Source: an uncultured delta proteobacterium
GTDB taxonomy: Bacteria; Desulfobacterota; BSN033; UBA1163
DNA: 64,000 bases
Assembly: GCA_963711845.1 (NCBI GenBank)
Contig: CAVQFR010000007.1
Location: 2,165 to 66,164 of the forward strand
Direction: 5' to 3'
Shown: piece after piece, positions 22,072 to 44,608 of the stretch
Numbering within the stretch: position 1 is the first letter of the stretch
Layout of the letters: every line of letters starts with the position of its first letter
Notes under the pieces: generated by a model
The model's database searches: none
Seen by the model: only the letters and a program-made list of their open reading frames with translations
Told to the model about the DNA's origin: nothing
Made by a program: the position numbers and the translations under genes

Positions 22072-23535
22072 ATGGAAGATGAGGCCCTCAAAAACGTCCA
22101 AGATCCTTCCAAAGAAGAAAAAGAATCCCAACAAGAACTTGAAAAGCGAATCTTCCATCTAAAGGCCCTCTATGATTTGAGCCAAGAGATAGGGTTCTTA
22201 AGAGGTACTCAAGAGATTACGAAAAACCTATTATTGATGATGATCGGGACCTTTGGGGCATCCTGTGGATTTATTCTTCTTCTCGATGTGGGCCGAGGCA
22301 AGATTGAGGCATTCACTCAGAGAGGCATGATTAAAAATTCTTTAGATCTGTTTTCTCAAACCATAGATTCCGCTTACTTTCAAGAGTCAAGCGAAGCCAC
22401 CAGCATCCGGGTGGTAGACGGACGAGGCGAAGTTCAGAAAAAGGAAAAGGGACCGTTTTTTGACCTCCTCTCCTCATTGAATATAAAGATTTGGATTCCT
22501 TTTGAAATCGAAGCAAATTTGAGAGGCGGTATAGGATTGGGAGAGAAGCTATCAGGAGATTCCTACAATCGAGATGATCAGGAATTGTTAAGCACCATGT
22601 CCCATCAGGGAGCAGTCGCTATTGAGAATGCCAGACTTGATCAAGCTCGCATCGAGGCTTTGGAGCAATCGAAAAAGGAGCTCGAGAAGCTCAATAGAGC
22701 AAAAAGTAAAGCGCTTGACCACCTCTCTCATGAACTGAGGACACCGCTCTCTGTGATCCAGGGAAACATCCGGATTTTGAAGCGTAAAACTCAATCACAA
22801 ACCCCTCCTATCGTGAGGGAAGAGGTCTTTGAATCCTTAGAGAAGAACCTGAATCGTCTTTCTGATATCCAGCAGGAGACCGATCAGATTATCCGTTCTC
22901 ATCAGGAATTAGAGATGAAGCCTCGGCTTGAGGAATTCGATTCTCCTGCTTCTTTTTCTCCTGCAACTATCCGCCTATACACGTTTACTGAGCGAATTTT
23001 GGAGAATATAAAGAAGCAGGCCCATCATCGGGAGATTCAACTTCAATTAGATGGGGAAAACGATCTCACTCTTCAAATGGATCCAAAGATCCTTGAAGAT
23101 ATTCTCGTGGGACTATTAAAGAACGCCATCGAGAACACTCCTGATGAAGGAATGATTCGGGTTGTTCTGGAGCACAGAGCAGAGTGGCTGCAACTCAAGG
23201 TGATGGATTTTGGCATAGGGATAACCAAGGAGAACCAGAGGCGTCTTTTCGAGGGATTATTTCATACCCTTGATACCGAACTCTATTCTTCTAAGAAACC
23301 TTATGATTTTGGTGCAGGAGGTAAGGGGCTCGACCTGCTTCGCCTCAAGGCCTATGGACAGCGCTTTGGTTTTGACGTTTCGGTAGGCAGTCAAAGATGC
23401 ATCTATCTTCCAACTGATCACGACCTTTGCCCGGGAAAAATCTCTGAATGCCCACACGGTAGAGTCAGAGAGGACTGCCTCAACTCTGGAGGAAGCACTT
23501 TCTGTTTAACCTTTTCCATCAAGGGTGATTCATAA
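22072..23535 (+). CDS. GAF-domain sensor histidine kinase with a C-terminal Cys-rich extension
   Basis: 487 aa. GAF end (HQGAVAIENARL), H-box (LDHLSHELRTPLSVI), N box (LLKNAIENT), G boxes (DFGIGI, GGKGLDL). The tail has 5 Cys plus His: CIYLPTDHDLCPGKISECPHGRVREDCLNSGGSTFC. It is paralogous to 40767-42245. Confidence 0.8.
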   Translation: MEDEALKNVQDPSKEEKESQQELEKRIFHLKALYDLSQEIGFLRGTQEITKNLLLMMIGTFGASCGFILLLDVGRGKIEAFTQRGMIKNSLDLFSQTIDSAYFQESSEATSIRVVDGRGEVQKKEKGPFFDLLSSLNIKIWIPFEIEANLRGGIGLGEKLSGDSYNRDDQELLSTMSHQGAVAIENARLDQARIEALEQSKKELEKLNRAKSKALDHLSHELRTPLSVIQGNIRILKRKTQSQTPPIVREEVFESLEKNLNRLSDIQQETDQIIRSHQELEMKPRLEEFDSPASFSPATIRLYTFTERILENIKKQAHHREIQLQLDGENDLTLQMDPKILEDILVGLLKNAIENTPDEGMIRVVLEHRAEWLQLKVMDFGIGITKENQRRLFEGLFHTLDTELYSSKKPYDFGAGGKGLDLLRLKAYGQRFGFDVSVGSQRCIYLPTDHDLCPGKISECPHGRVREDCLNSGGSTFCLTFSIKGDS

Positions 23536-23633: not shown

Positions 23634-24245
23634 TTATTGTTTTAATTTGAAAGAGATTATTTCCCAATCATAGATTACATCCCAATAATCACTTTTTTCA
23701 TATTGGCACTTCACCATAGATTTCACATCGGGCGAATACCAATACCATGCTTTCCCTTCCTTTGGCCGACCCGCTGTTTCTCCAACCGTTTCTTGTTTAT
23801 ACTCTAATTTAAGAGCCTTAAATTTTCCTGCTTGAATCACGATCTCTTCCCACCCCAAAACAGTTAAAGTCTCAAGATATGTCATTTCTTTTGATCCTAA
23901 GGCGGTTTGTTTAGTTATAAATTTGTCGTTCCATGTCTTCCCGACATCCAATGGAAAATTAAAAAGTCTTTTGTTCCTTCCCTCATACTTTGTTCGTTTA
24001 TCTCTAGCCATGTAGTAGAGTCTATTCAGAGAGCTTTTCTCACAAATTAAAGTCAAATCCCCGCGGGCCGTTGAGTATTTCACCACATAACTATCTGCCT
24101 CTGCATCAACTACCGTTATAATCACATCATCAGATAAAACCCACTTGTCCCCTACGTTCCAAACAGGGGCTTCAACCTTATTTTGACCAGATACAATGGT
24201 TGGAATGAATAAGACTAAAAAGATTAATAAAATCTTCTTTTTCAT
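23634..24245 (-). CDS. Secreted or periplasmic hypothetical protein
   Basis: Start set at MKKKILLIFLVLFIPTIVSGQ, preceded by SD aaggagg. It has a signal peptide and no recognisable domain. Confidence 0.55.
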   Translation of the reverse strand: MKKKILLIFLVLFIPTIVSGQNKVEAPVWNVGDKWVLSDDVIITVVDAEADSYVVKYSTARGDLTLICEKSSLNRLYYMARDKRTKYEGRNKRLFNFPLDVGKTWNDKFITKQTALGSKEMTYLETLTVLGWEEIVIQAGKFKALKLEYKQETVGETAGRPKEGKAWYWYSPDVKSMVKCQYEKSDYWDVIYDWEIISFKLKQ

Positions 24246-24319
24246 ATGATCTCCTCCTTTCATATATGGATTGATGTTAGAGAAATATTATCTTCTCGTT
24301 AAAAAGTCAATAGATTTTT

Positions 24320-24378: not shown

Positions 24379-24765
24379 GCAAATTTAAAAGAATTTAAAG
24401 CGTTCGTATTAGATACAAATCAGTGAATTCCATCACAAACACCTTTTCAAGTGCTATTGTTATATAGCTGAAATTAAACAGCTTCTTCTTTTGCTCTTTT
24501 TCCCTGAAAACAGGGTTATTATATTTCGTTCCAAACGCAACATTTCCTTTGGAAATCAATAAGTCTTGCTTATTGTCTTTTCCAGTACATCTTCCTTAAA
24601 TCCTAAGGTAGGGATAATTTTCACAATCTTATTTTAGTATTGACAAAAAAACGACTTTATGGTGGTGTTATATTGGTATTGAGGTATAAGGGGAGGGCTG
24701 ATGAGTAATAATCTTCCAATTCACTACTCCTTTTTACAAGCTTTAACTAACTAACAGAAGGAGGG

Positions 24766-25305
24766 ATGACAATGCGACGCTTATGGATGGTTATCTTGTT
24801 TCTACTCATTTTCATGTTCTGGAACGCTCCTGTGGGGAACGCTCAATTCCGAGAGGCAGGAGCAGAAAAACTCAGGGTTACTGTGGATGCCCCCGATTTT
24901 ACCCTGAAGGAGATCGGTGGAGGAAAAATCTCTCTCAAAGAGCTGCGAGGGAAGATCATTTTGTTAAACTTCTTCGCCACGTGGTGACCAAACTGCAAGA
25001 GGGAGTCTCCCTCATTTGCCAAACTTCATGAGGAGTTTAAGAACTCAGATTTGGTCCTTCTCAAGGTAGCAACGAAAGAGAAAGAAAAAGATATAACAAG
25101 ATATAAGAAAGAACATAATTTTTCTTCCCCCATCCTCTTTGAGGATGATGCAGCAGTGGCCACTGCCTATGGAGTCTGGAGTCGCCCCCAGACTTTTTTC
25201 ATCAATCGGGAAGGTAAGATCGTCGGCAGAGCACTTAAGGAAATGGACTGGACATCGAAGAACATGAAAGATCTCATTGAATTTCTTTTGAAGGAGAAAA
25301 AATGA
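24766..25305 (+). CDS. TlpA/ResA-like thioredoxin-fold thiol:disulfide oxidoreductase, predicted selenoprotein (in-frame UGA at 24985-24987 in the CxxC position: W-U-P-N-C)
   Basis: The 24766-24987 ORF has a signal/TM segment and ends ILLNFFATW then TGA. The same frame continues PNCKRESPSFAKL…FFINREGKIVGRAL, the TlpA-like body, with no other stop. The UGA sits exactly where TlpA/ResA carries the first Cys of WCxxC. A SECIS-like hairpin begins 11 nt downstream. Confidence 0.7.
24995..25017 (+). promoter_or_regulatory. SECIS-like stem-loop 11 nt downstream of the in-frame UGA
   Basis: After UGA comes ccaaacugcaa (11 nt), then GAGGG-AGUCU-CCCUC (5-6 bp stem, loop containing GU). The stem is extendable with a bulge (CAAGAGGGAGUCUCCCUCAUUUG). 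The spacing matches the bacterial SECIS rule. Confidence 0.5.
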
Positions 25306-25886
25306 ATCGAATGAATTTAAAGAAGATATCGTATTTGGTTTTTGTCCTGATCTTTGGATTTTTGGGAACCCGATGCGCCACTCAGACTCACAAAGAAGAA
25401 GTTAAGACATATCCAAAGGATTATGTTCATTCTTTAAAGGAGATTCATCTTGAGAAAGTGTTCAATGAGAACCGGGGCTTAAAAGTTCTGGAAGAGAATG
25501 CGACCACAGTCCATGACTACTACCGCGGAGGCGTCCAGGAGAAGGAAGAAGGGGAAAAACTGATCAAAGAAAGTAGGTGGGGGGAGGCACGGGTACATCT
25601 TGAAAAATCAAATCGGTTCTTGAGGGTCGTCCTCAAATATCTTCCCGAGGATGAGGCTTATCGCAATATCTATGGGGAGCAAGTGGTCATTTTTTTGCCC
25701 AACCTCTTGATCGCCGACAATGACCTGAAGTTGATCACCGTTTACAAGAATACGAGAAAGGATGATAAAGTGGCTGAGGCGAAAGGGAATGGGCAGCATC
25801 ATCTTGCCGAATCTCTAAAGAGTGTAAGAACCGAGTGGGCCTATCAAATCAAGAAAGAGTATGAGGCTGAATTGCCTAAAAAGTGA
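25302..25886 (+). CDS. Secreted hypothetical protein
   Basis: 194 aa with an N-terminal hydrophobic signal (ISYLVFVLIFGFLGTRCATQ). No recognisable domain. It overlaps the neighbouring genes by 4 nt and ~25 nt, which suggests an operon. Confidence 0.5.
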   Translation: MNRMNLKKISYLVFVLIFGFLGTRCATQTHKEEVKTYPKDYVHSLKEIHLEKVFNENRGLKVLEENATTVHDYYRGGVQEKEEGEKLIKESRWGEARVHLEKSNRFLRVVLKYLPEDEAYRNIYGEQVVIFLPNLLIADNDLKLITVYKNTRKDDKVAEAKGNGQHHLAESLKSVRTEWAYQIKKEYEAELPKK

Positions 25887-25893
25887 GGCAGCC

Positions 25894-27417
25894 ATGAAAG
25901 AGAAATGGATTTGGATTTTTTGTCTCATTCCGGTTCTCCTGATCCTTGGGACCACTCAGGACAGCTTCTCAAAAGAACCAGTAAGGCTTTATTTCTTCTA
26001 TTCTGAAGAGAGCGGAGGGCTGAAGGTCCAAGAAGGATTCATTACGCCTCTTTCAAAGAAGTACCCCCTTGAGATCCAATCTTTTTCCTTAAACCAATTG
26101 GGTAATTATGACCTCCTTGGCAAATTCGAAAAAGAATTGAAACAGGAGGATAACGAACTTCCTGTCGTTATTATCGGGAATAAAATCTTGGGGGGCGAGC
26201 CTAAGATTCGAAAAGATCTGGAGGGATGGGTCAAATCCTATGCTGAAAAAGGAGGAATTGACTGGCCCTCCCTTCAAGTGACGAAGACGGACCGGTGGAT
26301 CCCTCATGCCCCTACAGAGGAGGAAAAACGTTCCCAAACGATCGTGTATGGCGCTTTTTTCTATACCCATGGATGCCTTCACTGTGAAGGGGTGAAGGCA
26401 AAGTTAGGGGAGTGGGCCCCAAAGTTTCCTGATTTGAGGATAGGAACCTTTGACATGTCAACGGAGGAGAATAAAAAAATAGGTGAGGCTCTTTTTGAAA
26501 TCTATAAGGTTCCAGAACGCCGACTGGGGGAGATTGTTCAATTCTATATCGGAGAAGACTACCTTTCGGGAGAAGAATTTCGTTATGAGGATTTCGAAAA
26601 ACTGGTCTCAAAATATCAGGGGAAGGGTGCTCCTCCACCCTGGGAGAAAGTGACCCAAGAGGCTTTGATGAAAGGGGAGGAGAAGATCATTGATCGGTTC
26701 AAAAAATTCAGCCTCTGGGGCGTGTTGGTCGCAGGCCTGATCGATGGTCTCAACCCCTGTGCCTTCGCCACGATCGTCTTTCTGGTCTCCTATCTTTCTT
26801 TTTTGGGCAAACAAAGCAAAGAAATCCTTACCTACGGTATCATTTTCACCTTTGGTGTCTTTATTGCTTACATCATAGCCGGAGTGGGTCTCATGGCGGG
26901 CCTCCGCCAGTTGAGCGGTTTTCCCATGATTACCAAAGGGATCTATCTCGTCATCGGCATGTTTGCGTTCGTACTCGGGATCATCAGCTTTTACGATTAT
27001 CTTCAATTTCGTCGTGGTCATATGGAAAAAATGAAGCTTCAGCTTCCCATGGTCCTGAAGAAAAAGATCCACGGAATTATCAGAATACAAACCCGCTCCC
27101 CGAAAGCGGGCTTCATAGGGACATTCATCCTCGGATTCGTCATTGCTGCTACGGAGGTGGTCTGCACCGGGCAGGTGTATCTCCCCACCATCGGATATAT
27201 CATGAGAGTCCCCGAATTGAGGGTGAATGCCTTTTTAAATCTCGTCCTCTACAACATCATGTTCATCATACCGCTGGTGGGCATTTTTGTGGCGGCCTTT
27301 TTCGGAGTGACTTCTGAGAGGATGGCAGTTAAAACAAAAGAACATACGGGGACGGTCAAGCTGTTAACGGCGCTCTTGTTCATTGGTTTGGGACTGTTTC
27401 TTTTCTTTTTCCGCTAG
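25894..27417 (+). CDS. Fusion of a periplasmic thioredoxin-like domain (CxxC) with a CcdA/DsbD-family transmembrane disulfide-reductase (electron transporter) domain
   Basis: N-terminal signal and soluble domain with a CxxC motif (FYTHGCLHCEG). C-terminal ~6 TM region has the two conserved TM Cys typical of CcdA/DsbD-beta (GLNPCAFATIVF and TEVVCTGQVYLPT). Start chosen at MKEKWIW. Confidence 0.7.
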   Translation: MKEKWIWIFCLIPVLLILGTTQDSFSKEPVRLYFFYSEESGGLKVQEGFITPLSKKYPLEIQSFSLNQLGNYDLLGKFEKELKQEDNELPVVIIGNKILGGEPKIRKDLEGWVKSYAEKGGIDWPSLQVTKTDRWIPHAPTEEEKRSQTIVYGAFFYTHGCLHCEGVKAKLGEWAPKFPDLRIGTFDMSTEENKKIGEALFEIYKVPERRLGEIVQFYIGEDYLSGEEFRYEDFEKLVSKYQGKGAPPPWEKVTQEALMKGEEKIIDRFKKFSLWGVLVAGLIDGLNPCAFATIVFLVSYLSFLGKQSKEILTYGIIFTFGVFIAYIIAGVGLMAGLRQLSGFPMITKGIYLVIGMFAFVLGIISFYDYLQFRRGHMEKMKLQLPMVLKKKIHGIIRIQTRSPKAGFIGTFILGFVIAATEVVCTGQVYLPTIGYIMRVPELRVNAFLNLVLYNIMFIIPLVGIFVAAFFGVTSERMAVKTKEHTGTVKLLTALLFIGLGLFLFFFR

Positions 27418-27459: not shown

Positions 27460-27977
27460 ATGATTCCACAAATCAAAAAAATTCTTTTCGCAACCGATCT
27501 CAGCAAAAACTCTGCTTATGCTTTCTTTTACGCGGTCCATATGGCGAAAAGAGACGAAGCAAAGATTGTGATTTTGCATGCGATTGAACCTCTTCCTTTC
27601 ATGCCGGTAACTTTTGGAGATTTCTCGCATCAGGTTGTGAAGGACCGCTGGGAGGAGACCGTTAAGAAAGTTTAAGGAGCGAATACAGGATATTTCCGTA
27701 AAGGTGGACAGCTCAAATGGGCATTTCGTCTGTTGACCTGGTATCCAACATCCTTATTCGGCTGGGTAACCCTGTGGAAGAGATCCTAAAGGTGGTCGAA
27801 GAAGAAGATTGCGATGTAATCGTTCTTGGAACCCATGGCAAGGGACTTTTCAAACAGACCTTGCTTGGGAGCGTGTCCAGTTCGGTCCTTATTCGAACCC
27901 AGAAACCAGTATTTGTGATACCATTGCCATCTAAAAATACCAACCTTGATTTGAACGTAATGGAGGACTTCTTATGA
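27460..27977 (+). CDS. Universal stress protein (UspA family); reading frame disturbed in the 27675-27717 region
   Basis: N-terminal part [10 protein letters not shown]…IVILHAIEP (frame 1). C-terminal part [53 protein letters not shown] (frame 3). Both are canonical USP segments. The ~40 nt linker is out of frame. Confidence 0.6.
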
Positions 27978-28621
27978 AAAAGATTTTGATGATGATTATC
28001 TTCGTAATTTTTCTTTTCGGCTGTGCAGGGATCCCCGTCCGACGCGCACTTCAAGAAAATATCAATGTTTCTCCGGGGAGGGTTGAAGGAAATCAATTCA
28101 CTGGTATTCGATACTCCTTTAATGTCTCCGTTCCTGGCCATTGGAAGGTCACGACAGAATTCCCTGATTTCCTTGAACAACTGGGTTACGACAAACCTTT
28201 TTCGACGGATAAGGAGCAGACAGAACTCTATGCGTATAATCCCGAAACAAAATCAAATATCAACTTCGATTTCACGCCGACGGGTCGGTATGCAAGATTC
28301 AACCAGAAAAGAATCGAACTTCTCACTTCAATGGCAACTGAAAGTTTGAAAGCTGAATTGGATAAAGAGTTTGGGAAGGGTGTTGTTAAACCGGACGTGT
28401 TTCCCGCAGAGCCGATCTCCTTAAAAGGTGTTAAATACGCTGCAAAAAAATATGCGACCTATACGGCAAAAGGACAGAAACGGGAACAGGGATGGATTTA
28501 TGGATTTACAGAACCCTATCAAATTTTTATCATTTACTCGATATTCGAAAAGACGATGGCCAGCGACCGCCAGGATCTGAAAAAGATTCTTGATTCTTTT
28601 GAGTACATAACAAAGAAATGA
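27974..28621 (+). CDS. Lipoprotein, hypothetical
   Basis: 215 aa with a lipobox (IFLFGCAG). No recognisable domain. It is the last gene of the co-directional block running 24766-28621. Confidence 0.6.
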
Positions 28622-28775: not shown

Positions 28776-30450
28776 TCACCACTGAATTCCTTTCTTCTTA
28801 AGATAGCTTTGCGCATCATTGTTTCCTAAACTCGCAGCCTTTTTCAAATCTTCCAGAGCTTGTTCTGTTCTGCCAAGTTTCAAAAATGTATACCCCCGCT
28901 GTAAAAAAGATCAGGGAGGACGTCGGATCGAGTTTAATCGCTTTGTCAAAATCTTTAATAGCATCTTGAAGTTTATTCAATGAGGCGAGGGCCATCCCTC
29001 TTCTAAAATTAGCATATGAAAACTCAGGGTCGAGCTCAATTGCCTTATTGGCATCCTCCAGTGCTTGATGATAGTTTTTCAACATGAAATAGGCCCAGCT
29101 CCGATGGCAATAGGCATATACATAAGCCGGGTTAAGTTTTATTGCTTTATTTAGGTCCTCAATGGCCTTCTGGTAGTTGAGCAAACCAATATGGGCCCAT
29201 CCCCGGGTATTAAAGCCCCAGGCAAGGTTTGGGTCAAGTTTGATAGCCTGTTCGCTCTCGCTAAGGGCTTGTTGGTGTTGCCCCCAATCATTGTAGATTG
29301 CGGCTCTTCCGGCATAAGGTTTTGCAAAATTAGGATCGATCTCGATTGCCTTATCGAAGGCTTTCATAGCCTCTTGGTTCTTCTTATCTCTGTATCTCAA
29401 TGCATACCCTTTTTTAAACCAATCCACCGCGTTCAATTCGTTAACAGCTTTAGCGTATTTCTCTTGGCTGACTTTCTCTCCTTCGCCTTTCCCCATCTCT
29501 TTTTTCAATTTCTCAATCTCTTTTAGCGCCTCTTCCGTTTTTTTCTTCATCTCTTCCAAAGTCTTACTCTGCTCCTGATCCCTACGAACAATATCCATTG
29601 ATCTTGCTAATTCATCAGTTACTTGAACCTTTGGAGCAGGGGAAAGAGCGGGTTTTGAGATTTTTTCGGGGGATGGAGGTGGTTTCTTCTCTTTGGGGAC
29701 AACTTCTGGTGAAGGAGGCACGGTTGCTAAGGGCTTTTCAGGTAAGGGAGCTGTGATTTTCTCTTTAAAGGCTACCTCTGGTTGTGGGGTAGGGGAGATA
29801 TAAAATTTCCAGATCATCATAGCAGCAACTACCACAATCGCAGCGACCACAAAACCTAAAGCAGCCCTCTGCCATTGTGTGGGTTTAGCCTTTTTTTGGG
29901 TGGTTGCTTCCGGCTCAATTTGCGCCCCGTAAACCCGCACCGGCTTGATAATGTTCTTGACCTGATGCTCCCCCAGATACTTGTACCTCAAAGGCAGCTT
30001 GTTCTCGATCTGCTCGAATGCGCTCCCCGAGATACATATCCCTCCCGCCTCGGCCAAGCCTTCCAGCCGGGCCGCAATGTTCACTCCATCACCGTAGATC
30101 GCATTCCCTTCCTCGATTACATCCCCCAGGTTGATCCCAATCCGAAACGCCATCCTGCGGCTCTCAGGCAGCATGGCGTTCTTCGCCCTGAGCACCTGCT
30201 GGATCTCCACCGCACACTGCACCGCATCTACTACGCTCACAAACTCAGCCAGAACGTTGTCCCCAAGGGCGTCCACAATCCGCCCTCGGTGCTGCTGAAT
30301 GAGGCCCCTCATCATACCCTTGTATGTGTTCAGGGTATGGACGGTCCACTCTTCGTCCTCTCCCATGAGGCGGCTATACCCCTTCACATCTGCACTCAGG
30401 ATGACAGTGAGTTTACGTTTCACTTCTTGTGTGTTCATGGAGTCCTCCAT
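28776..30450 (-). CDS. Membrane-anchored class III nucleotidyl cyclase with C-terminal TPR repeats (paralog 1); one frame change in a T6 run at ~28905
   Basis: The ORF spans 28816-30450. The cyclase domain has the metal-binding Asp residues (ILSADVKGYS, DALGDNV). It has one TM helix (ALGFVVAAIVVVAAMMIW), a Pro-rich linker, a coiled coil and 5 or more TPRs. The ORF tail becomes nonsensical after AIKLDP. Shifting one base in the tttttt run restores a TPR ending …LQRGYTFLKLGRTEQALEDLKKAASLGNNDAQSYLKKKGIQW, with a stop at 28776-28778. The likely start is the second Met (MNTQEVKRKLT). Confidence 0.75.
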
Positions 30451-31966: not shown

Positions 31967-33860
31967 TCACTTCAAGCCCGCCTTGCGCAGGGCACCAATA
32001 TGGCGATCCAAATCGGCCTGATTCTTGAAGAGGAGTGCTTTTGCATGATGTTCAAGAGAAAACTTGGGATCTATCTTCAGGACCTCTGCGACCTCATCCT
32101 GAGCTTCCTTCTCACGGCCCATCAAACTATAAGTGGCGGCTAAGCCCAAGCGAGGCATCGTACTATCAGGGGCGCGATGGAGAGCTTTCTTATATCCCTT
32201 TATCGCCTCTTCATACCGCCCCAATTGAACATAGGAAGAGGCCAACATTTGAGAATACCAGGCCGGGAAAGGATTGAGACGTATTGCCTTCTGATACATT
32301 GCAATCGCTTCCTCAAACCTTCCAGCATAGTATAAACTATAAGCCAATGCCGCCTGGACAAAATCTGAATTGGGATCGAGGGCGAGCGCCCGTTCCCCTT
32401 CTGCAATAGCCTTTTCGTACTGCCTTTTACCCAAAGAGATTCTTCCCAAAAAGGCGTGGCGCTTTTCCCGAAGAGTCGTCAAGGACGAGGGCCTTCTGTA
32501 CGCTTTCTTCTGCACGTCTTAGAGATTTTTCAGGGGATTCAGTTGTTCCATAACTCAAATCCATGATGAGAGTCGCGCCCAGGCGTAAGTAGGCTTCTGC
32601 ATATTTCGGGTCGAGAGCAATAGCTTCCTCTGCATATCTTCGGGCTTGGATATTACCCTCTTTAGTGAATCGACCTGACTGATGGGCTGATTGCAAGAGC
32701 TTCAAATATGCCTCAAGGTTGTCCGTGCCTTTTATCGGTAGGCCGGATCGTTCTACCCCCTCCAGCTTAACCTGGAGGGCAGATATGATCCTCAGCGTAA
32801 TCTCATCCTGTAAAGCAAAAATGTTTTTCAGATCTCGGTCGTAGCGTTCAGCCCATAAGTGGTGTCCCGTAAGGGCATCGATGAGCTGTGCGGTAATCCT
32901 CACTTTGTCGCCCGATTTGCGGATGCTTCCCTCCAGGACATACCGCACACCCAGTTCCTCGCTCACCTGCTTGACTTTCACGGGCTGACCTTTATAGGTG
33001 AAAGTTGATTGCCTTGAAATCACAAATAAGTGGGGAACCTTGGAGAGAGCGGTGATGATTTCCTCAGTGATTCCATCGCTAAAATACTCCTGCTCTTTGT
33101 CACCACTCATGTTGACAAACGGCAGCACAGCAATGGAGGGTTTGTCAGGCAAGGGGAAAGCCATTTTTTCTTTTGAGGCAACCTCAACTGGAGGACGAGT
33201 AGGGTGAAGGTATAAACGCCAAATTACAACAACTGCGGCTACTACAATTAGAATTGCTACAAGAATTGAAACTGGATTCTGCCATTTTCTTGGTTTAGCC
33301 TTTCTCTCACCGATCACCTTGCCAGCTCCCTCCGGCTCCATCAGAACTCGATAGACTCGTATGGGCTCTGCGATGTTCTTAACCGCTTGCTCCTCAAGAT
33401 ACTTATATCCAAGGTTTAACTTGTTCTTAACTTGATCAAAGGCAGTTCCAGAGATACAGATACCTCCTGCTTCAGACAGACTCTCTAAACGCGCTGCAAT
33501 ATTGACTCCGTCCCCCAAGATCTGCTCCCCATCCTCAATCACATCCCCAAGGTTGATCCCGATGCGAAACTCCATCCTGCGGTTCTTGGGTAACTCAGCA
33601 TTTCGGGTTTTGAGGTCCTCCTGAATATCGACAGCACACTCAACCGCATCGACCACACTGGCAAACTCGGCCAGGACATTGTCCCCAGGAGAGTCCACCA
33701 CTCGAGCCCGGTGTTGCCCCACCAAGTTCCGAATGACCTCCTTGTATGTCTTCAGAGTCCGGACAGTCCACTCCTCGTCTTCCCCCATGAGGCGACTGTA
33801 CCCCTTCACATCGGCACTGAGAATGGCAGTTAGCTTACGCTTAATTTCTTGGGTGGTCAT
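31967..33860 (-). CDS. Membrane-anchored class III nucleotidyl cyclase with periplasmic TolB-N-like domain and C-terminal TPR repeats (paralog 2); one frame change near 32470
   Basis: The 477 aa ORF holds the cyclase (MTTQEIKRKLTAILSADVKGYSRLMGEDEEW … VDSPGDNVLAEF … GGICISG), one TM helix and a TolB-N-like domain (LPFVNMSGDKEQEYFSDGITEEIITALSKV … QLIDALTGHHLWAERYDR). The 182 aa ORF holds the TPRs. The two overlap at 32427-32515. The shift occurs at gcgccacgcc. Confidence 0.75.
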
Positions 33861-33916: not shown

Positions 33917-36900
33917 CTATTTTCGCTCTTCTATGGAAGACAGGGCCTCTTTAGCCTGTTTCAGGAACCCTTCGGCCTCGGTTTGTTCAAAGATCTGGAT
34001 AGCCTCGGAGATGTATTCCTTGGCTTGCTCGGTCTTCCCTTTCATCCTATACAGCAAACCCAAATCGAGATAGGCCATCCCCATCATGCCTTTAGCGCCG
34101 ATTTCTTTAGCAACCTCTATTGCTCGATTGAAATGTTCTTCGGCCTTCTTGCTGGCGAACGGGACGTTCTTAACGAGAAAGCCTATATTCTTAGCCATTG
34201 TTGATAGACTGATCGGCCCCGATCCCTCCACAATCTGAGAATAGACCTTCCCCAGGGCATACTCGGACCGGGCATAATGGGGTCGCCACTGGTTTTCCAG
34301 ACATTCTCGTTGTCCCTCTTCCAATAGCTTCAACCCCTGGCTCATCTGGCCTTTGGCAATTAACAACACCCCCATATAAATACACGCCTGTATTCCGATC
34401 CATCCAGCCCCAAACTTCCGGCTGTAGCTCAACACTTCCTCAAGAGCGGTTTCAGCCTTATCCAGCTGGTTGCTGAGCAAATAGCTCAAACCAAGGTTCA
34501 GCCTTAAAAGCTGTGAGTAGAAAGGGTCCACAGCGAGCCGGGTTCCGGTCTCCAGGCATTCAATGGCCGAATGGAAATCACTACGCAAAGCGTAGCCACC
34601 TCCCATAATCCCGTGACCCATCACCAAGCTTCGAATATTTGAATGTCTCTCACCATAGTCCAGAAGGGCTTTCCCGGCTTCAAGGGTCTTTTTCGTCTCT
34701 CCGCTATAATAGTACGCTGCCCCTAATCCGCCAAGGGACTTGAAATACAAGTACGGATCTGACTCGAAAGACCTGGAGATATCCTGGGCCCTCTGTCCAA
34801 AGTCAACCGCTTCTTCCAGAAGGCCCAATCCGGCACAGGTCCAGGTAAGCCAGGTGCAGGCGTAGCCGATCACCCTCCTGTCTTCAATCTCCTCCCCAGT
34901 CTTGAGAGCTTTGCACAAGTATTCATAAGAGCCTTTCGCCTTCCCGCTGCAATGCAAGCCAAAGCCGAGCCATGCATAGAACATCCCGAGTTCGGCCTTG
35001 CCCACGGACTCAGCCAGTCCTTCATGATTGCTGAACAAACTGATGAGGCCCCTGAAATCGCCACGGTAGTAAAAGACATAGGCCCACTTGTTGAGCAGAT
35101 CGATGAGGAGCCTCTTTTCCTCATCCGTCATGGCTGGTTTATTCTTAAGAAGATCGAAAGCCTCTTGATAGTACTGATGGGATTCTTCAATGGCATACCT
35201 TTTGAGACTCTTCTCGCCCGACTTCATAAGATAATCGACGGCCTTGTGTAGAGATTGACCCCGCTTGAAATGAAAGGCCAGGGTCTCATAGAACTCTGAA
35301 AGCCTCTCGCGAAACAACTGCTCCATCACAAGAGCAATTCGCTCATGGACTGCCTGGCGCTCCCTTTTAAGAAGACCGCTGTAAACCACCTCCTGGGTCA
35401 GGGCATGCTTGAAAACATATTCCAGCTCCGGCTGAAAAGACCTTATCCGGATCAGGTCGAACTGCTCCAACCTGTGGAGATGATGGTCCAGCCGCTCCTT
35501 GAACTCCGTGATTTTTGTAAGGATCTCATAGAGAAAGGTCCTCCCAATGACCGAGGCTTCCTGAAGAATGCGCTTCATCTCCTTCTCCAGTCGGTCGAGC
35601 CTTGCGGAGATGACGCCTTGTACTGTTGGAGAAATGTCTGCCTCGCCGATTGGCCGACTTAGCTTCCAGTTGCCGTTGTCGCGGATGAGGGTGCCCGACT
35701 CGATCAGGGAGTTGATAACCTCTTCCAGATAAAAAGGATTACCCTCTACCTTCTCCTGAATGAATTTCCTCAACTCCTGGGGGATGGTCTTGGACTTCAG
35801 CAGAGATTCCATCATGTCCTGGCTATCCGAGGCTGAAAGATCCTGGAGATTGATCTCCTGGTAAGTCTTGCCAAGGGCACCCAACTGATGGCTGGTGAAG
35901 AGGCTAAAAGGAAGCCTGTATGCACAGATAAACAGGACCGGATAACTGAACTCCGATAGAATCGAACGAAGAAGATCAAGGGACGATGGATCTGCCCAGT
36001 GGATGTCCTCCAGACAGATAACCGTCGGGCCACTCTGTGCCAAAGCGGAAAGAATGGCCTGGACTGCTTTTAACAGACTCGATCTCCAGAATTCAGGGCT
36101 CACCCCTTCTATCTCTGGGTAGCTGAGGCTATAAAGGCTCCCTACATAAGGGAGCACATCCTTTTTCTTTCCAATCAGGTTTTCTATACCTGATTCGATT
36201 TTTCCCCTCACTTTTTCTGTAGAATCGCCTTCTTCAATTTGCCAGGTTCGATTCAGGAGATCGATCAGTGGAAAATAGGGAATGTTTTGGGAATAGGCGT
36301 AAGCGTGGCCCTCACGCCATTGGATTTCATTGAGATCCAATGTGGCCCTGAATTCCTCAAGAAGTCGGGTCTTTCCGGTGCCCGCATCACCACAAATAGA
36401 GAAGATTCCCCCTTTGCCCTGACGCAGCCTTTGCACTGCCTCCTGAAGTTGGGCCAATTCCGCCTTCCTGCCGATGAGATCAGCCCTCAACCCAAGGGTA
36501 CGATGCAAAGTAAGCGGCTTCTCCTTGGTAGATAGCAGCCTGTAAACTTGCACTGCCTCTACCTTCCCTTTGATCTGGGCAGGCTCTAACCTTTCAAAAA
36601 CAAAATGCCCTTCTGCCAGCTGATAAGTCACTGAACCCACCAGAATCTCTCCTGCCTTGGCCAGATCGCTCAGCCGAGAGGCCAGATTGATGGTGTCTCC
36701 CAACACGCCCGTAGTGACTCCTTCCTGATCCATCTGACCTGTCACAACGAGACCCGTATTGATGCCGGTGTGCATGGATAAAGATCTTTCAATCCTTTGC
36801 TCAACCCGCGGACTCATCGCCTCTACAAAGGAGTGTATTTCCTTAGCCGCCCGGATGGCCCTTACCGGATCATCTTCGTGGGCCTTTGGCACACCAAAGA

Positions 36901-37267
36901 AGGCCACGACTGCATCACCAATAAATTTTTCAATGGACCCATTGTACTTTTTCACGATAGAGGTAATCTCTGCGAAGACTTGACTCATGATCTCCTTGAC
37001 GTCTTCAGGATCAAGCCTTTCCGACATAGCGGTATAACCTGATAGGTCAGAGAAAAGAACGGTGACCTGCTTTCGCTCCCCCTCAATCTGCGGTTCTATT
37101 CTTCCAATTACTGCTTCTTCTAATTTCTGTCCGCACTCACCGCAGAATTTGTCTGCAGGAAGGTTTTCAAAATGGCAATTGGGGCAGAGCAATATTAGTT
37201 TTGCACCACATTCCTTACAGAACTTTCTTATCTCTGGATTTTCAGTCTGGCATTTCGGACATTTCAT
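33917..37267 (-). CDS. Multidomain signalling protein: N-terminal double zinc ribbon, class III cyclase domain, STAND/AAA+ P-loop NTPase, C-terminal TPR array (1116 aa)
   Basis: Zinc ribbons (MKCPKCQTENPEIRKFCKECG … CPNCHFEN … CGECGQKL). Cyclase (KQVTVLFSDLSGYTA … EKFIGDAVVAFFG … GINTGLVVTG). Walker A (ICGDAGTGKTRLLEEF). Long helical/TPR C-terminus. A 56 nt gap separates it from paralog 2 downstream. Confidence 0.8.
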   Translation of the reverse strand: MKCPKCQTENPEIRKFCKECGAKLILLCPNCHFENLPADKFCGECGQKLEEAVIGRIEPQIEGERKQVTVLFSDLSGYTAMSERLDPEDVKEIMSQVFAEITSIVKKYNGSIEKFIGDAVVAFFGVPKAHEDDPVRAIRAAKEIHSFVEAMSPRVEQRIERSLSMHTGINTGLVVTGQMDQEGVTTGVLGDTINLASRLSDLAKAGEILVGSVTYQLAEGHFVFERLEPAQIKGKVEAVQVYRLLSTKEKPLTLHRTLGLRADLIGRKAELAQLQEAVQRLRQGKGGIFSICGDAGTGKTRLLEEFRATLDLNEIQWREGHAYAYSQNIPYFPLIDLLNRTWQIEEGDSTEKVRGKIESGIENLIGKKKDVLPYVGSLYSLSYPEIEGVSPEFWRSSLLKAVQAILSALAQSGPTVICLEDIHWADPSSLDLLRSILSEFSYPVLFICAYRLPFSLFTSHQLGALGKTYQEINLQDLSASDSQDMMESLLKSKTIPQELRKFIQEKVEGNPFYLEEVINSLIESGTLIRDNGNWKLSRPIGEADISPTVQGVISARLDRLEKEMKRILQEASVIGRTFLYEILTKITEFKERLDHHLHRLEQFDLIRIRSFQPELEYVFKHALTQEVVYSGLLKRERQAVHERIALVMEQLFRERLSEFYETLAFHFKRGQSLHKAVDYLMKSGEKSLKRYAIEESHQYYQEAFDLLKNKPAMTDEEKRLLIDLLNKWAYVFYYRGDFRGLISLFSNHEGLAESVGKAELGMFYAWLGFGLHCSGKAKGSYEYLCKALKTGEEIEDRRVIGYACTWLTWTCAGLGLLEEAVDFGQRAQDISRSFESDPYLYFKSLGGLGAAYYYSGETKKTLEAGKALLDYGERHSNIRSLVMGHGIMGGGYALRSDFHSAIECLETGTRLAVDPFYSQLLRLNLGLSYLLSNQLDKAETALEEVLSYSRKFGAGWIGIQACIYMGVLLIAKGQMSQGLKLLEEGQRECLENQWRPHYARSEYALGKVYSQIVEGSGPISLSTMAKNIGFLVKNVPFASKKAEEHFNRAIEVAKEIGAKGMMGMAYLDLGLLYRMKGKTEQAKEYISEAIQIFEQTEAEGFLKQAKEALSSIEERK

Positions 37268-37296: not shown

Positions 37297-40200
37297 TTAC
37301 AGCTTTTGGAAGAGCTTTTTTGTGCGGGCCAAGTGATAATCCATTCCCATCCTGCTGAACATCTCTTCAGACCTTCTCAGGTATTCAAGGGCTTTTTCCT
37401 TTCTTCCGGCATCCAAATAAAGCTCGCCGAGAGTTAAGCAACCCACAGCATACGCTGGCTTCGTTTCTAGATCATCCAGCATTTTCATTCCTTGCAGAAT
37501 GTACTCTTCTGCCTTATCTATCTGCGATTCTTCCATTTTTCCAACGGTCCTTCCAAGTTGAAGCCATGCCTCTCCTTCAAAATATTTTTCATGGTTCTTT
37601 TGCGCTAGATTCAGAGATCGCTCAGCATGAACTTTTGCCTCATTCAAATTACCCAAATCAAAATGAACCAGACTTAAAGCCCAGAGATGAAGGGACAACC
37701 AACCAGGGGCTCCGATATGCATCTTCATGTTAAGGCCTTTTTCCGCGAATCCCAGGGCTTTGCCAGGATCTCCCATCAAACGATATCCATCCCCAATGAA
37801 GCACCAGGCAAGGGGCAAGAAGAAGACTGCTTTCAATTTTTCAAGGTATCCAATGCTGGTCTCCATATGTTTTGCAGAATTCTCTCCATCGCCTTTAGGG
37901 CTGAATAAACACCCGTACAGGAATTCCGCAATGGCTATGCTATATACGTTATTGGCTTCTTGTGCTAAAGAAAGAGCTTTATTACATGCCTGCTCTCCTT
38001 TTCCAAATTCCCCCACATATCCCAGGCCATGTCCATAGTTGGCATACAAATACGAACGCAGATCAACGGGCATGCCGAATAATTCACCCTGCCTTTGGGT
38101 TTTTTCAAGCGAAGCCAAGATTCTTGGAGTTAAGTGCACCACTTTCCGGTATTCTCCCGCGACATCCATGGAAAAAGTTAGCATCACACCGATCCGAGCC
38201 GTTATTTGACTGTCCTGTAACCGCTCTGCTTCCTCAAAAGCATCCTGCTGATATTTCATTCCCAGCGCAGCATTTCCTTTAGCTGAATAAAAAGAGCCCA
38301 GATGACTGCATAAGATTGCCAAACTTTTTTTGTCCTTAACACCTTTACAAAGCGTCTCTCCCTCCTGGAGTATCTTGAAAGAATCTTCAGGATAAGCTAG
38401 GAGTCTCATCGAATGCGCCGTCGAAAGGATGACTTCAATCTGTTCCTTCTTGTTCTGATCTGTTTCGCCCATTTGCTTGAGGATACCGATCGCATCTCTG
38501 TAAAAACGGAAGGCCTCTGTCGGGGAATAGCTTCTCATGGCTTTGTTGCCTGATAATTTCAGGTATTGGTAAGCCTTTTCTAAGTCATCACTCTTGGAGT
38601 AATGATAAGCTAACATCTCATAGAACTCTTCCAACCTGTCCGGGTAAATCTCTTCGATGGCCCTTCCAATCTTCTCGTGGATCTCCTTTCTCCTCTTGAG
38701 AAGTAAGCTGTTATAGGCCACCTCCTGGGTGAGGGCGTGTTTGAAGATATATTCCAGCTCAGGGAAGAGTCTCTTCTCATAGATAAACTCCAGGCCCTGA
38801 AGGTTTAAGAGATGGGATTTAAGCTCTTCCTTCATCTCCATGATGGCCTGAAGGATACGAAACGCAAACTCTCTCCCAATCACCGATGCCACCTGCATGA
38901 TCCTCTTGAGGCTCTCCTCCAAACGGTCCATCCGGGCCGCTATGATCCCCTGGATGGTATCGGGAACCTGAATATCAGAGGGTTTTTTACTTAATAAATA
39001 GTGATCCCCCTCTCTCCGGATCGTCCCGTTTTCTAACAACGTATGGGTAAGCTCCTCCATGAAGAGAGGATTCCCAGCAGCTTTGTTCAGGATCAATTCC
39101 CTAAGCTCAGGGACGATCTCTCCTTCCTTGAGAATAGACTGAACCAGTTCGGCACTTGTCTGGAGAGAGAGCTGATCTACACGGATGTTGGTGTAATACG
39201 ATTTGCTCCCCCAGCGATGGGTATATTCCGGCCTATAGAGAAGGATCAAGAGAATGGGTGTGTTGGCCAGCCAGCCGATGAAGTAGTCGAGGAACTCTTC
39301 AGAGGTCTTGTCGATCCAGTGAAGGTCTTCGAAAACAAGAACCAAGGGCTTTTTTTGGCTTTCTCGAATCAGTAGATCCCTAATGGCTTCAAAGATCTTC
39401 TCTCTTTTCTGTTTGGGCTCAAGCTTAAGGTGGGCTTCATCATCTACTTTAAGAGAGAGAAGCTCTTGGAAAGGTGAGAGCGCACTTTTAAGCTTCTCAT
39501 TAAGCTGAAAGACTTTCTCTTTTATCTTCCTCTTAATAGAAAACTCCTGCTCCCCTTCTTTGATCTCAAAATATGATCTCAGGATATCCAGTATGGGCAG
39601 GTAGGCTATCGAGCCTCCGTAGTGGAGGCACCGTCCTTCGAGGTAAACGTATTCTTCTCTTTGGAACATCTTCCTCGTCTCAAAGATGATCCTTGACTTC
39701 CCCACTCCAGCTTCGCCCACGACCCCTACCATCTGCCCGGACCCGGATCGAACCTTTTCCAAAGCCTCTTGGAGAAATTCCATTTCTCTCTTTCTGCCAA
39801 CAAATTTCGTAAGGCCTGCCACAGCAGCCGCTTCGATCCTTGTTTTTACTTTACTGGGCATTAAGAGCTCATAGGCTTCTTGAAGCTCCTCTTTCCCCTT
39901 CACCTGGACCTTGCCCAATGACTCGAACTTGAAGAAATCTTTTGCAAGTTTGTAAGTATGTCCTGATACTAAAATGGTGCCAGGCTTTGCCGTGTTCTCC
40001 ATCCTGGAAGCAAGGTTAGTGGTATCACCGACCGCTGTGTAATCCATCCGCAAATCATCCCCGATTGAGCCTACCACTACCGGCCCGGAGTTGAGCCCCA
40101 TACGCATTCTAAAATCAAATCCGGACTCCCTCTTCACTTTTTCCCCGTACTCCACCAGGGCCTTTTGAATCGACAAGGCAGCATAGCAGGCCCGTTGAGC

Positions 40201-40663
40201 ATGGTCCTCATGAGCTACAGGTGCACCGAAAAGAGCCATCACTCCATCCCCCGTAAACTGATTGATGGTCCCTTCGTATTTGTGAATCTCATCCATTGAA
40301 ATCCTGAAACATCCGTCCATGATTTGATGGACCTCCTCTGGATCGAGCTTCTCAGACATGGAGGTGTAATTGAGCCACATCCGCAAAGAGCACCGTTACA
40401 AGTTTCCGTTCACCTTCGATAGAGCTGCGGGTAGTGAGGATCTTATCAGCCAAGAATTTGGGGGTGTAGGATTTGGGCTTTGAGTAGTCGATAGGAGGAG
40501 CTTCTTTACGCTTCTCAAGAGCAGTCCCGCACTCACCGCAGAATCTGAATTGGGGCGGATTAAAAAAATTGCAGTGCGGGCAGACCTTTTCTAACTTAGT
40601 TCCACATCCTCCACAAAATTTCATGCCTTCAGGGTTTTCAGTCGAACATTTCTTGCACTTCAT
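37297..40663 (-). CDS. Second double-zinc-ribbon / cyclase / STAND NTPase / TPR protein, tandem paralog; one frame change at ~40352-40386
   Basis: The 103 aa ORF holds the zinc ribbons (MKCKKCSTENPEGMKFCGGCG … CPHCNFFN … CGECGTAL) and the start of the cyclase (GERKLVTVLFADV). It overlaps the 1029 aa ORF, which holds the rest of the cyclase (GDGVMALFG), the Walker A (VVGEAGVGKSRIIFE) and the TPRs. It lies 29 nt upstream of 33917-37267. Confidence 0.75.
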
Positions 40664-42697: not shown

Positions 42698-44608
42698 TCA
42701 CTTCAGTCCCGCCTTGCGCAAGGCGTTAACAACTTTATCTATTTCTGATTGATCCTTATAGGGAGTGACTGTCTTTGCAAAGTAATCCAGTGAGAACTTT
42801 GGATTTATCCTGAGGACTTCTTCAGCCTCAGCACGGGCCTCCTTCTCTCGACCCATCATACTGTATGTAGTCGCCAGACCAATATGGGCAATGATGATGA
42901 TCAGGCGCACGCTGAAGTGCCTTTCTTATATGCCGAAACCGCCTCTTCAAACCGACCCGTCATCCGGAGGGCATGGCCAAAGTATACAAAGGTATAGGCC
43001 GCAGCATTGGGGTTGAGTCGGATTGCTTTTTGGAACATTGGAATGGCTTCCTCCGGCCGGCATGCAAAGAGCAGGGCCGAGGCATATGCAGCATAGGCAC
43101 CCGATCCGCTGGGATCGAGGGCTACAGCCCGTTCCCCTTCAGCAATCGCCTTGTCATACTCCCTTTTGTAATATAGAGAACAGTCAACATGATGTGGGCA
43201 ATGGGTATGGAATCATCCATGGCAAGGGCTTTTTTCGCCAGCTCTTCAGCTTTCTCAAGAGTCTCCCGAGGGGACTTCGTGTTGCCAAGCTAATAATCGG
43301 TCATGTAGACCCCACTGAGTTGGGCATAACCTACTGGATTTTCTGGACACATTGAAATAGCCTCCTCTGTAAGCCGCCGAGCCACGTTGTTGTCCTCGAT
43401 ATTGAGACGGTCACTGTATTTGGCCGCCTCCATTAGCTTCAACATAGCAATCGAAACCTTGCTTCCCCCTGTAGTATTTCGAGTACGCCGAGGATATTTC
43501 CCCCTCCGTCAGCTTCACTCGGATGGCCGTCAAGATCTTCATGGTGATCTCATCCTGCAGGGCAAATAGGTCTTTCAGATCACGATCGTACCGCTCTGCC
43601 CAGAGGTGATGTCCTGTGAGGGCATCGATCAACTGGGCATTAATCCGGATGCGGTCAGCAGACCTCTGAACGCTCCCCTCCAGCACATACCGAACCCCAA
43701 GCTCCTCGCTCACCTGCTTAACCTTCACAGGTTTGCCCTTATAGAAAAAGGTTGACTGTCTGGATATCACAAATAAGCGGGGAACTTTGGAGAGAGCGGT
43801 GATGATGTTCTCGGTGATCCCGTCACTAAAAAACTCCTGTTTGGGGTCTTCGCTCATGTTCACAAAGGGCATTACGGCAATAGAGGGCACATCGGGCAAG
43901 GGAAACGCCATCTTTTCTTTGGAGGCGACTTCAATCGGAGAAGTGGGACGTAAGTATGAGCGCCAGATCACAACAATTGCGGCTACTACAATTAGGATTG
44001 CTATAACAATGAAAGCCGTCTTCTGCCATTTTGTTATAGCAGCCTTTTTCTCTGCGGCGATACGGGGGACAGCAGCCCCAGGCTCCAATAGAACACGATA
44101 CACCCGCACCGGCTTGGCGATGTTCTTAACAGCCTGTTCCCCAAGAAATTCATATCCAAGAGATAATTTATTCTCCACCTGATCATAAGCTGTTCCGGAT
44201 ATGCAGATGCCTCCTGCTTCGGAGAGACTTTCCATACGGGCCGCAATGTTGACTCCATCGCCGAGGATCTTATCCCCCTCCTCGATTACATCCCCAAGGT
44301 TGACACCAATTCGAAACTCCATCCGGCGGTTTTCAGGTAATTCTGCATTTCGAGCTTTAAGTTCTTTTTGGATCTCAACAGCACACTCAACCACATCCAC
44401 CACGCTGGCAAACTCGGCCAATAGATTATCCCCTGGGGCATCGACCACTCGGCCATGGTGTTGCTGAATGAGGTTGGTCATCACCTCCTTGTAAGCATTC
44501 AGGGTGTGAACGGTTCCCATTCTCATCTTCTCCCATGAGACGACTATAACCCTTCACATCGGCACTGAGGATGGCAGTGAGCTTACGTTTAACTTTTTGG
44601 GTAGTCAT
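42698..44608 (-). pseudogene. Degraded third paralog of the membrane cyclase / TolB-N-like / TPR gene, with multiple frame disruptions
   Basis: Fragments in three frames. The N-terminus is MTTQKVKRKLTAILSADVKGYSRLMGEDE. The cyclase core is VDAPGDNLLAEF…GGICISG, with a TM helix and TolB-N-like domain (…QLIDALTGHHLWAERYDR). The TPR tail is …GLATTYSMMGREKEARAEAEEVLRINPKFSL…RKAGLK. At least 4 frame breaks (near 44520, 43400, 43200 and 42900) and missing residues. Confidence 0.6.

Follow-up and report, generated by a model that had tools for sequence, protein, structure and literature searches.

A probable selenoprotein gene with an intragenic SECIS element, encoding a TlpA/ResA-like thiol:disulfide oxidoreductase, in an uncultured delta proteobacterium

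The interrupted reading frame

The DNA analysed here (the window) is a stretch of 64,000 nucleotides (nt) from contig CAVQFR010000007.1 of an uncultured delta proteobacterium. Our subject is a candidate selenoprotein gene at positions 24766 to 25305, in which an in-frame TGA would be read as selenocysteine (Sec) with the help of a hairpin resembling the bacterial selenocysteine insertion sequence (SECIS). An open reading frame (ORF) that starts with ATG and runs from 24766 to 24987 comprises 73 codons and is closed by TGA at 24985-24987, and beyond this TGA the same frame is open for 105 further codons, until the TGA stop at 25303-25305. An earlier note on this DNA, made from the sequence alone, had described two same-frame ORFs split by one TGA, and our reading of the ORFs and their translations bore this out. 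Translation of the junction gives ...GKIILLNFFATW-[TGA]-PNCKRESPSFAKL..., in which LLNFFATW-[TGA]-PNCKRESPSF forms a UxxC motif (U, Sec). The features of the gene are as follows.

24753 to 24759, plus strand: Shine-Dalgarno-like GGAGGG, 6 nt 5' of the ATG, a putative assignment from inspection of the sequence.
24766 to 25305, plus strand: predicted selenoprotein coding sequence, 179 codons including Sec, then the terminal TGA stop.
24766 to 24846, plus strand: predicted N-terminal signal peptide, the first 27 residues (MTMRRLWMVILFLLIFMFWNAPVGNA-Q), judged from the translation.
24985 to 24987, plus strand: UGA probably read as Sec, position 1 of UxxC (residue 74), assigned from the TGA of orthologues and the alignment to ResA.
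24994 to 24996, plus strand: TGC, the resolving Cys of UxxC, invariant column C77 in the protein alignment.
24995 to 25019, plus strand: candidate SECIS hairpin, from the fold, with a lower stem (24995-24998/25016-25019) and an upper stem (24999-25004/25008-25013).
25005 to 25007 and 25014 to 25015, plus strand: unpaired parts of that hairpin in the fold, namely the apical loop GUC and a 2-nt bulge, respectively.
25303 to 25305, plus strand: terminal TGA stop, which in the sequence overlaps the ATG of the next gene (ATGA).

The translated N-terminus is hydrophobic and is followed by xNA-Q, an arrangement retained across orthologues, and the putative cleavable signal peptide is predicted to direct export of the selenoprotein to the periplasm. 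A twin-arginine translocation signal, which the MRRL start could have indicated, was rejected, as the RR pair varies among orthologues (QR, KR, RH). The codon for the resolving Cys is TGC in 68 of 69 sequences. When the window was scanned for ORFs that could be joined in frame across a single stop, no second case with a redox motif was found.

The coding sequence on the two sides of the TGA was compared between the window and its orthologues. The ratio of nonsynonymous to synonymous substitution rates (dN/dS) against the window was 0.07-0.12 for the 45 codons 3' of the TGA and 0.13-0.21 for the 47 codons 5' of it. Such sequence comparisons indicate that the frame past the TGA is translated and is under purifying selection.

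The hairpin downstream of the TGA

In the numbering used here the U of the UGA is nt 1. The upper stem is formed by GAGGGA (nt 15-20) and UCCCUC (nt 24-29), which enclose the loop G21-U22-C23, and it starts after 11 intervening nt from the UGA. Past the 2-nt bulge there are four more pairs (nt 11-14 with 32-35), giving a 10-bp stem. The free energy is -9.1 kcal/mol for the 6-bp upper hairpin alone and -11.5 kcal/mol for the extended hairpin. The fold confirmed as accurate the description given in the earlier note, of a GAGGG/CCCUC stem 11 nt past the UGA with a GU loop and about 10 bp with a bulge. By the rule for Escherichia coli fdhF, the upper stem begins 11 nt past the UGA; the hairpin resembles an fdhF-type SECIS in this respect and in being intragenic, but it lacks the bulged U that is found in the upper stem of fdhF. 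The lower stem is variable here, which is a difference from both fdhF and the consensus bacterial SECIS.

The consensus bacterial model (Zhang and Gladyshev 2005; summary in PMC13188914) allows 3-9 nt in the apical loop and 4-16 bp in the upper stem, places a G at loop position 1 or 2, typically in the form G[G|U], separates UGA and loop by 16-37 nt, and sets an upper limit of -7.5 kcal/mol on the free energy. The hairpin lies within all four of these constraints. Its GUC loop is 3 nt long, or 5 nt with the closing A-U pair open, a trait of its own; the upper stem, 6 bp long in the window, reaches 7 bp in the consensus fold; the small apical loop starts with G-U; and the free energy is in the range of the model. 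The UGA-to-loop spacing is 17 nt, and the agreement with bacterial SECIS spacing that had been claimed therefore holds. A scan with our own crude implementation of the SECIS model found no SECIS-like hairpin 3' of the terminal TGA at 25303. In the minimum-energy fold a second small hairpin (25021-25038, AAACUUC-AUGA-GGAGUUU) adjoins the 3' side of the candidate SECIS.

The conservation of the hairpin was measured over 66 distinct orthologous sequences of the TGA form. The six upper-stem pairs are paired in all 66. Pair 17-27 takes three forms, A-U (34 sequences), G-U (22) and G-C (10), and is broken in none; it links an Arg/Lys replacement (AGG/AAG) with a synonymous change in a Pro codon (CCC/CCU). 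Paired cells amounted to 91.1%, compared with 45-63% once the 3' partner was slid by 1-3 columns, and the covariation score of 0.179 was matched in 0 of 500 shuffles. RNAalifold returned an upper stem of 7 bp, in which the extra pair, 14-30, is A-U in 27 sequences, G-U in 17 and G-C in 11 and is broken in 11. The loop residue G21 is invariant (66/66); at position 22, 63 sequences have U and the three from Nitrospirota/Nitrospinota have G, so that the loop rule of the model holds throughout the set.

Codon usage around the site points to the same part of the RNA. Near the site, 42 codon columns specify an amino acid that is conserved and has more than one codon; among these columns, synonymous variation was zero only at Glu+6 (GAG in 69 of 69) and Ser+7 (TCT in 69 of 69), the two codons that make up the top of the stem plus the loop. 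For comparison, another Glu is encoded by GAG in 33 sequences and GAA in 34, and another Ser uses four codons. The Cys-form homologues have GAG (33) or GAA (14) at the Glu codon, and CCA and CCG occur at their Pro codon. Because of this conservation, the covariation and the absence of synonymous change within it, the hairpin is far beyond what chance would give.

An explanation that leaves out Sec was weighed against these results. A near-cognate tRNA, for Trp or Cys, might decode the UGA at low frequency, or translation might stop and restart, and the hairpin might serve for pausing or mRNA stability, with no involvement of SelB or Sec. That the window itself holds none of the Sec machinery is in keeping with such a scheme, as is the annotation of one orthologous locus (L001), in which a GTG 11 codons past the TGA was called as a start. 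However, the window has GCC at the codon corresponding to that GTG, none of the 21 codons after the TGA is a conserved start codon, and the first possible start in the window lies 22 codons past the TGA; the codons in between, and the residues that they specify, are conserved, including the invariant second Cys, the resolving residue. Moreover, the position of the hairpin, its spacing and its loop match the SECIS model exactly, and the pairing of UxxC with CxxC forms among homologues is the classic signature of Sec. We regard read-through or restart without Sec as improbable.

The TGA in orthologous genes

Orthologues were collected by a protein search, and the DNA of the orthologous loci was then fetched for a check of the codon. 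TGA is present at the Sec codon in 79 loci, which represent 66 distinct sequences over the 42 nt from the codon, and TGC or TGT is present in 49 loci; a search of relatives for Sec and Cys orthologues, which the earlier note had suggested, was thus positive for both forms. All 14 orthologous loci from metagenome-assembled genomes (MAGs) designated L008-L021 carry TGA. They are 59-96% identical in amino acid sequence, are labelled Thermodesulfobacteriota, 'delta proteobacterium' or Syntrophaceae, and derive from short-read as well as long-read assemblies. Wetland and sediment are among the sampled habitats of the orthologues. In the database, 15 or more orthologues end exactly at ...NFFATW, ...ASW, ...APY or ...ATY, and full-length Cys orthologues (for example P0005, P0011, P0012 and P0024) read ATLCPNC, ATYCPNC or ATWCPNC. 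The DNA of the window is about 91% identical to that of L008 (CAVPSJ01, MFD10007.bin.2.36), a close relative, so the window comes from a related, non-identical organism; in the list of indels between the two, assembly errors and real differences are not separable.

Four close orthologues of the Cys form, with TGT or TGC (L097:1720, L104:1720, L124:333 and L140:58), keep the hairpin or a near version of it, the slightly altered hairpins having the loop GUG or GGC. Their sequences suggest recent Sec-to-Cys conversions that left a relic SECIS. In distant TlpA-like homologues the position is nearly always Cys (CPPC) and Sec forms are sporadic. Three genes from Nitrospirota/Nitrospinota MAGs (L022:4223, L023:4208 and L033:1574) have TGA at the CxxC position, in the motif U-G-W-C, together with the same hairpin core and a GGC loop, and in L055:3102 an extra paralogue with U-P-F-C stands beside two Cys paralogues. 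Thiol oxidoreductases with Sec usually show this scattered distribution among Cys homologues.

The orthologous loci also bear on whether the TGA could have arisen by nonsense mutation or through a sequencing error, which would make this a pseudogene or a product of faulty assembly. Defects of the assembly type do occur in the window: the neighbouring gene for a universal stress protein (Usp; 27460-28000) has two frameshifts, near 27670 and 27715, and its three pieces match the intact orthologue of 171 amino acids (aa) from L001 in frames 1, 2 and 3, which fits indel errors of a long-read assembly. In addition, the orthologues are publicly annotated as truncated fragments. However, the other defects noted in the window are indels and not substitutions, the frame downstream of the TGA is free of stops and under purifying selection, and the same TGA recurs in the 66 distinct sequences, which come from independent samples and assemblers, so that a shared error at this codon is excluded. 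An error or a pseudogene is accordingly very hard to credit, and the earlier view of the TGA as a clean in-frame UGA at a catalytic residue, unlike an artefact, is borne out. The same view had attributed every other premature stop in the window to a homopolymer frameshift; frameshifts were found in the one case that we checked, that of Usp with its two, and the claim for all such stops is broader than this.

A reassigned genetic code (code 4 or 25), in which TGA would specify Trp or Gly, has next to nothing in its favour: three database proteins, P0001-P0003, do show W at the Sec position (ATWWPNC), but they also read W through the terminal TGA (...KEKKWI...; ...KEKKWIELI), the mark of code-4 gene calling, TGA ends 15 of the 41 long ORFs in the window, the selenoprotein gene included, the residue aligned in homologues is the catalytic Cys and neither Trp nor Gly, and reassignment would make a conserved SECIS-type hairpin unnecessary. 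Because the terminal TGA is read as W as well, P0001-P0003 are evidently artefactual full-length 'orthologues' produced by a gene caller using a table with TGA as Trp. TGA is otherwise a normal stop codon in the window.

Relationship to known protein families

The read-through protein matched Pfam AhpC-TSA (PF00578) with an E-value of 9.6e-29 and 100.3 bits (cut-off 26) over residues 40-153, and Redoxin with an E-value of 2.3e-20 over residues 40-170. Both matches span the TGA, so neither half on its own is a complete domain. The nearest solved structures are reductases of the thioredoxin family that act outside the cytoplasm, among them Bacillus subtilis ResA (PDB 3c71, E 8e-24) and TlpA (1jfu, E 1.7e-10). 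The Sec position aligns to the first Cys of W-C-x-x-C both in the alignments to the ResA and TlpA structures and in the Cys orthologues. The earlier note had read the junction as LLNFFATW-U-PNCKRES, with Sec in place of the N-terminal Cys, and had proposed that U be aligned with Cys in TlpA/ResA homologues; in the alignment with 3c71, U falls on the first CxxC Cys of ResA, in agreement with that reading.

Assignment to a narrower family was less favourable. Among NCBIfam models, ResA (NF002854) ranked first with a score of 102.9, below its cut-off of 170, and TlpA (NF047696) scored 52.5, below its cut-off of 230. The description of the protein as TlpA-like therefore stands at the level of the superfamily, given the AhpC-TSA and ResA matches, and does not extend to the NCBIfam ResA and TlpA families; the sequence places the protein as TlpA/ResA-like at the superfamily level only. 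Membership of the ResA-like WAxxUGC selenoprotein family (NF041054) was rejected, the score being 55 bits against 300. NF041054 likewise describes a TlpA/ResA-like selenoprotein, but its model is 354 positions long and its motif is UGC, whereas the present protein has UxxC, as UPNC.

A better fit was offered by the Prx-like thiol:disulfide oxidoreductases, a selenoprotein family predicted with high confidence and defined by PF00578 with UxxC or UxxU, of which WP_010940744.1 of Geobacter sulfurreducens is the representative (PMC9312934; PMC13188914). These proteins are distant relatives of Prx with a thioredoxin-like UXXC motif (PMC1088965), and Prx-like selenoproteins have been recorded in Syntrophus aciditrophicus, Desulfotalea and Geobacter (PMC1794560, Table 3). 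Our protein has PF00578, Sec in UxxC (not the TxxU of true Prx) and Cys homologues, and its sequence fits the family by the published domain-plus-motif definition (PMC9312934). The likeness extends to AhpC-TSA as the best Pfam domain, to the thioredoxin-like setting of the Sec, to a SECIS just downstream and to a deltaproteobacterial/Thermodesulfobacteriota host. In contrast to the known members, the sequences studied here form a distinct clade, with the motif W-U-P-N/S/D-C-x-[RK]-E-S-P-S and a conserved operon of its own; the hosts of this clade are uncultured Thermodesulfobacteriota/Syntrophaceae MAGs, and its public records are truncated 'AhpC/TSA family' fragments.

The protein can also be compared with B. 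subtilis ResA and Bradyrhizobium TlpA, extracytoplasmic CxxC reductases that are re-reduced via CcdA/DsbD. It shares with them the fold, the domain and an N-terminal export signal or anchor, and a DsbD/CcdA-like membrane protein is encoded beside its gene. It differs from them in having Sec instead of the nucleophilic Cys, in its NCBIfam scores, and in the lack of adjacent genes for cytochrome c maturation or Sco/Cox.

Neighbouring genes

Orthologous loci share one gene order: a GAF-HisKA kinase comes first, and the split AhpC-TSA gene, genes for two proteins (191-237 aa, then 507-524 aa) and Usp follow. Besides the Usp gene described above, the window has the following members of this group.

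22072 to 23535, plus strand: GAF-HisKA-HATPase sensor kinase, upstream of the selenoprotein gene, identified with Pfam and syntenic in orthologous loci.
25302 to 25886, plus strand: conserved gene for a 194-aa protein with a hydrophobic N-terminus, recognised by synteny.
25861 to 27417, plus strand: conserved gene for a protein of 518 aa, in which a soluble part bearing CxxC is joined to a putative DsbD/CcdA-like membrane domain, from synteny and sub-threshold matches.

Between the kinase and the selenoprotein gene lies a minus-strand gene (23634-24263), and its 209-aa product gave a weak match of the DUF3108 type; the kinase of L001 is followed immediately by the selenoprotein ORF. The 194-aa protein had no match in Pfam or NCBIfam. 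The 518-aa protein has an N-terminal soluble part with a CxxC motif (HGCLHCEG) and a C-terminal membrane domain with Cys residues in NPCAF and VVCTGQ. It matched an NCBIfam model of the ArsG family at 9.7e-8 over residues 283-516, the whole length of the membrane domain, and Pfam DsbD_TM weakly (E 0.055, residues 285-513), below the cut-off; a sequence search of the PDB gave no match. By analogy with CcdA/DsbD, which serve ResA/TlpA, the 518-aa protein could supply electrons across the membrane to the Sec enzyme, and the 194-aa and 518-aa proteins may, together with the selenoprotein, constitute an undescribed periplasmic redox module.

Proposed decoding and function of the selenoprotein

From the results described above, we conclude that positions 24766-25305 are very probably one selenoprotein gene with a SECIS, encoding an exported TlpA/ResA-like (Prx-like) thiol:disulfide oxidoreductase. 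The mature protein is predicted to have about 150 residues, with Sec as the nucleophilic active-site residue in W-U-P-N-C. In the mechanism that we propose, the UGA at 24985 would be recoded, with the intragenic hairpin at 24995-25019 acting as a bacterial SECIS. SelB, the elongation factor that brings Sec-tRNA(Sec), would dock on the apical G-U loop and the upper stem and would deliver Sec when the UGA enters the ribosomal A site; at the second TGA (25303), which has no SECIS-like hairpin, translation would terminate. The signal peptide would direct the protein to the periplasm, where the Sec-Cys (selenenylsulfide) pair may reduce the disulfides of partner proteins or oxidised thiols. Re-reduction would probably proceed via the co-transcribed DsbD/CcdA-like membrane protein encoded at 25861-27417, which is the putative electron path.

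Several observations weigh against this conclusion. The z-score of the single-sequence fold was -1.86, which is not statistically exceptional, and of the 2578 TGA trinucleotides that the window contains, our crude implementation of the SECIS model accepted 93 (3.6%), and a stricter version 1.7%; taken from one sequence, the hairpin is weak evidence. Conservation of the lower stem is poor, with pair 13-33 unpaired in 50 of the 66 sequences, and the sequence of the window is without pair 14-30 of the consensus fold. A search of the whole window against Rfam at the gathering threshold matched nothing; we know of no Rfam model for an in-frame bacterial SECIS of such a kind, so this null result says little. 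The genes selA, selB and selD and the gene for tRNA-Sec are not in the 64-kb window: ARAGORN found no tRNAs in it, hence no tRNA-Sec, and Pfam and NCBIfam scans of 33 of its ORFs, among them all real-looking genes of at least 250 aa, found no SelA, SelB or SelD domains. Finally, the function assigned to the 518-aa membrane protein is based on sub-threshold matches.

A wider role can be put forward only tentatively. The Sec oxidoreductase might be the terminal reductase of an uncharacterised selenium-dependent periplasmic pathway specific to uncultured Thermodesulfobacteriota/Syntrophaceae-like bacteria, with a substrate unlike those of the ResA, CcmG and TlpA systems, although we consider such a role rather doubtful. 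The pathway would then correspond to the conserved cluster of the GAF sensor kinase, the Sec-containing TlpA-like protein, the 194-aa protein, the 518-aa protein and Usp, the 518-aa protein combining a CxxC thioredoxin-like domain with a divergent DsbD-like one.

Much of this is already known: the bacterial selenoprotein family has been described since the mid-2000s, the lineage is rich in selenoproteins, and no new mechanism is involved. Knowledge of Sec decoding and of thiol-disulfide oxidoreductases is unchanged by the finding. What the finding would change is the annotation, in that a gene publicly split into two 'AhpC/TSA' or 'hypothetical' fragments would be corrected to a single selenoprotein gene. 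A selenoprotein family that was predicted with high confidence and never biochemically characterised would also gain a well-populated clade, represented by 66 or more distinct sequences, and the source organism would be marked as a Sec user. The gene offers a clear natural example of how an intragenic SECIS may constrain both codon choice and amino acids, here through the R/K-E-S-P-S motif, and it points to an uncharacterised conserved operon.

Other genes in the window

Further downstream on the minus strand is a group of five genes related to adenylate/guanylate cyclases. Four of them have a cyclase domain (28816-30450, 33917-37267, 37297-40386 and 43411-44526), and the fifth (32427-33860) has an NCBIfam match of the adenylate-cyclase type only. 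Two of the five encode proteins of more than 1000 aa that carry cyclase, AAA_16 and TPR domains, and the gene at 28816-30450 encodes a cyclase domain with TPR repeats.

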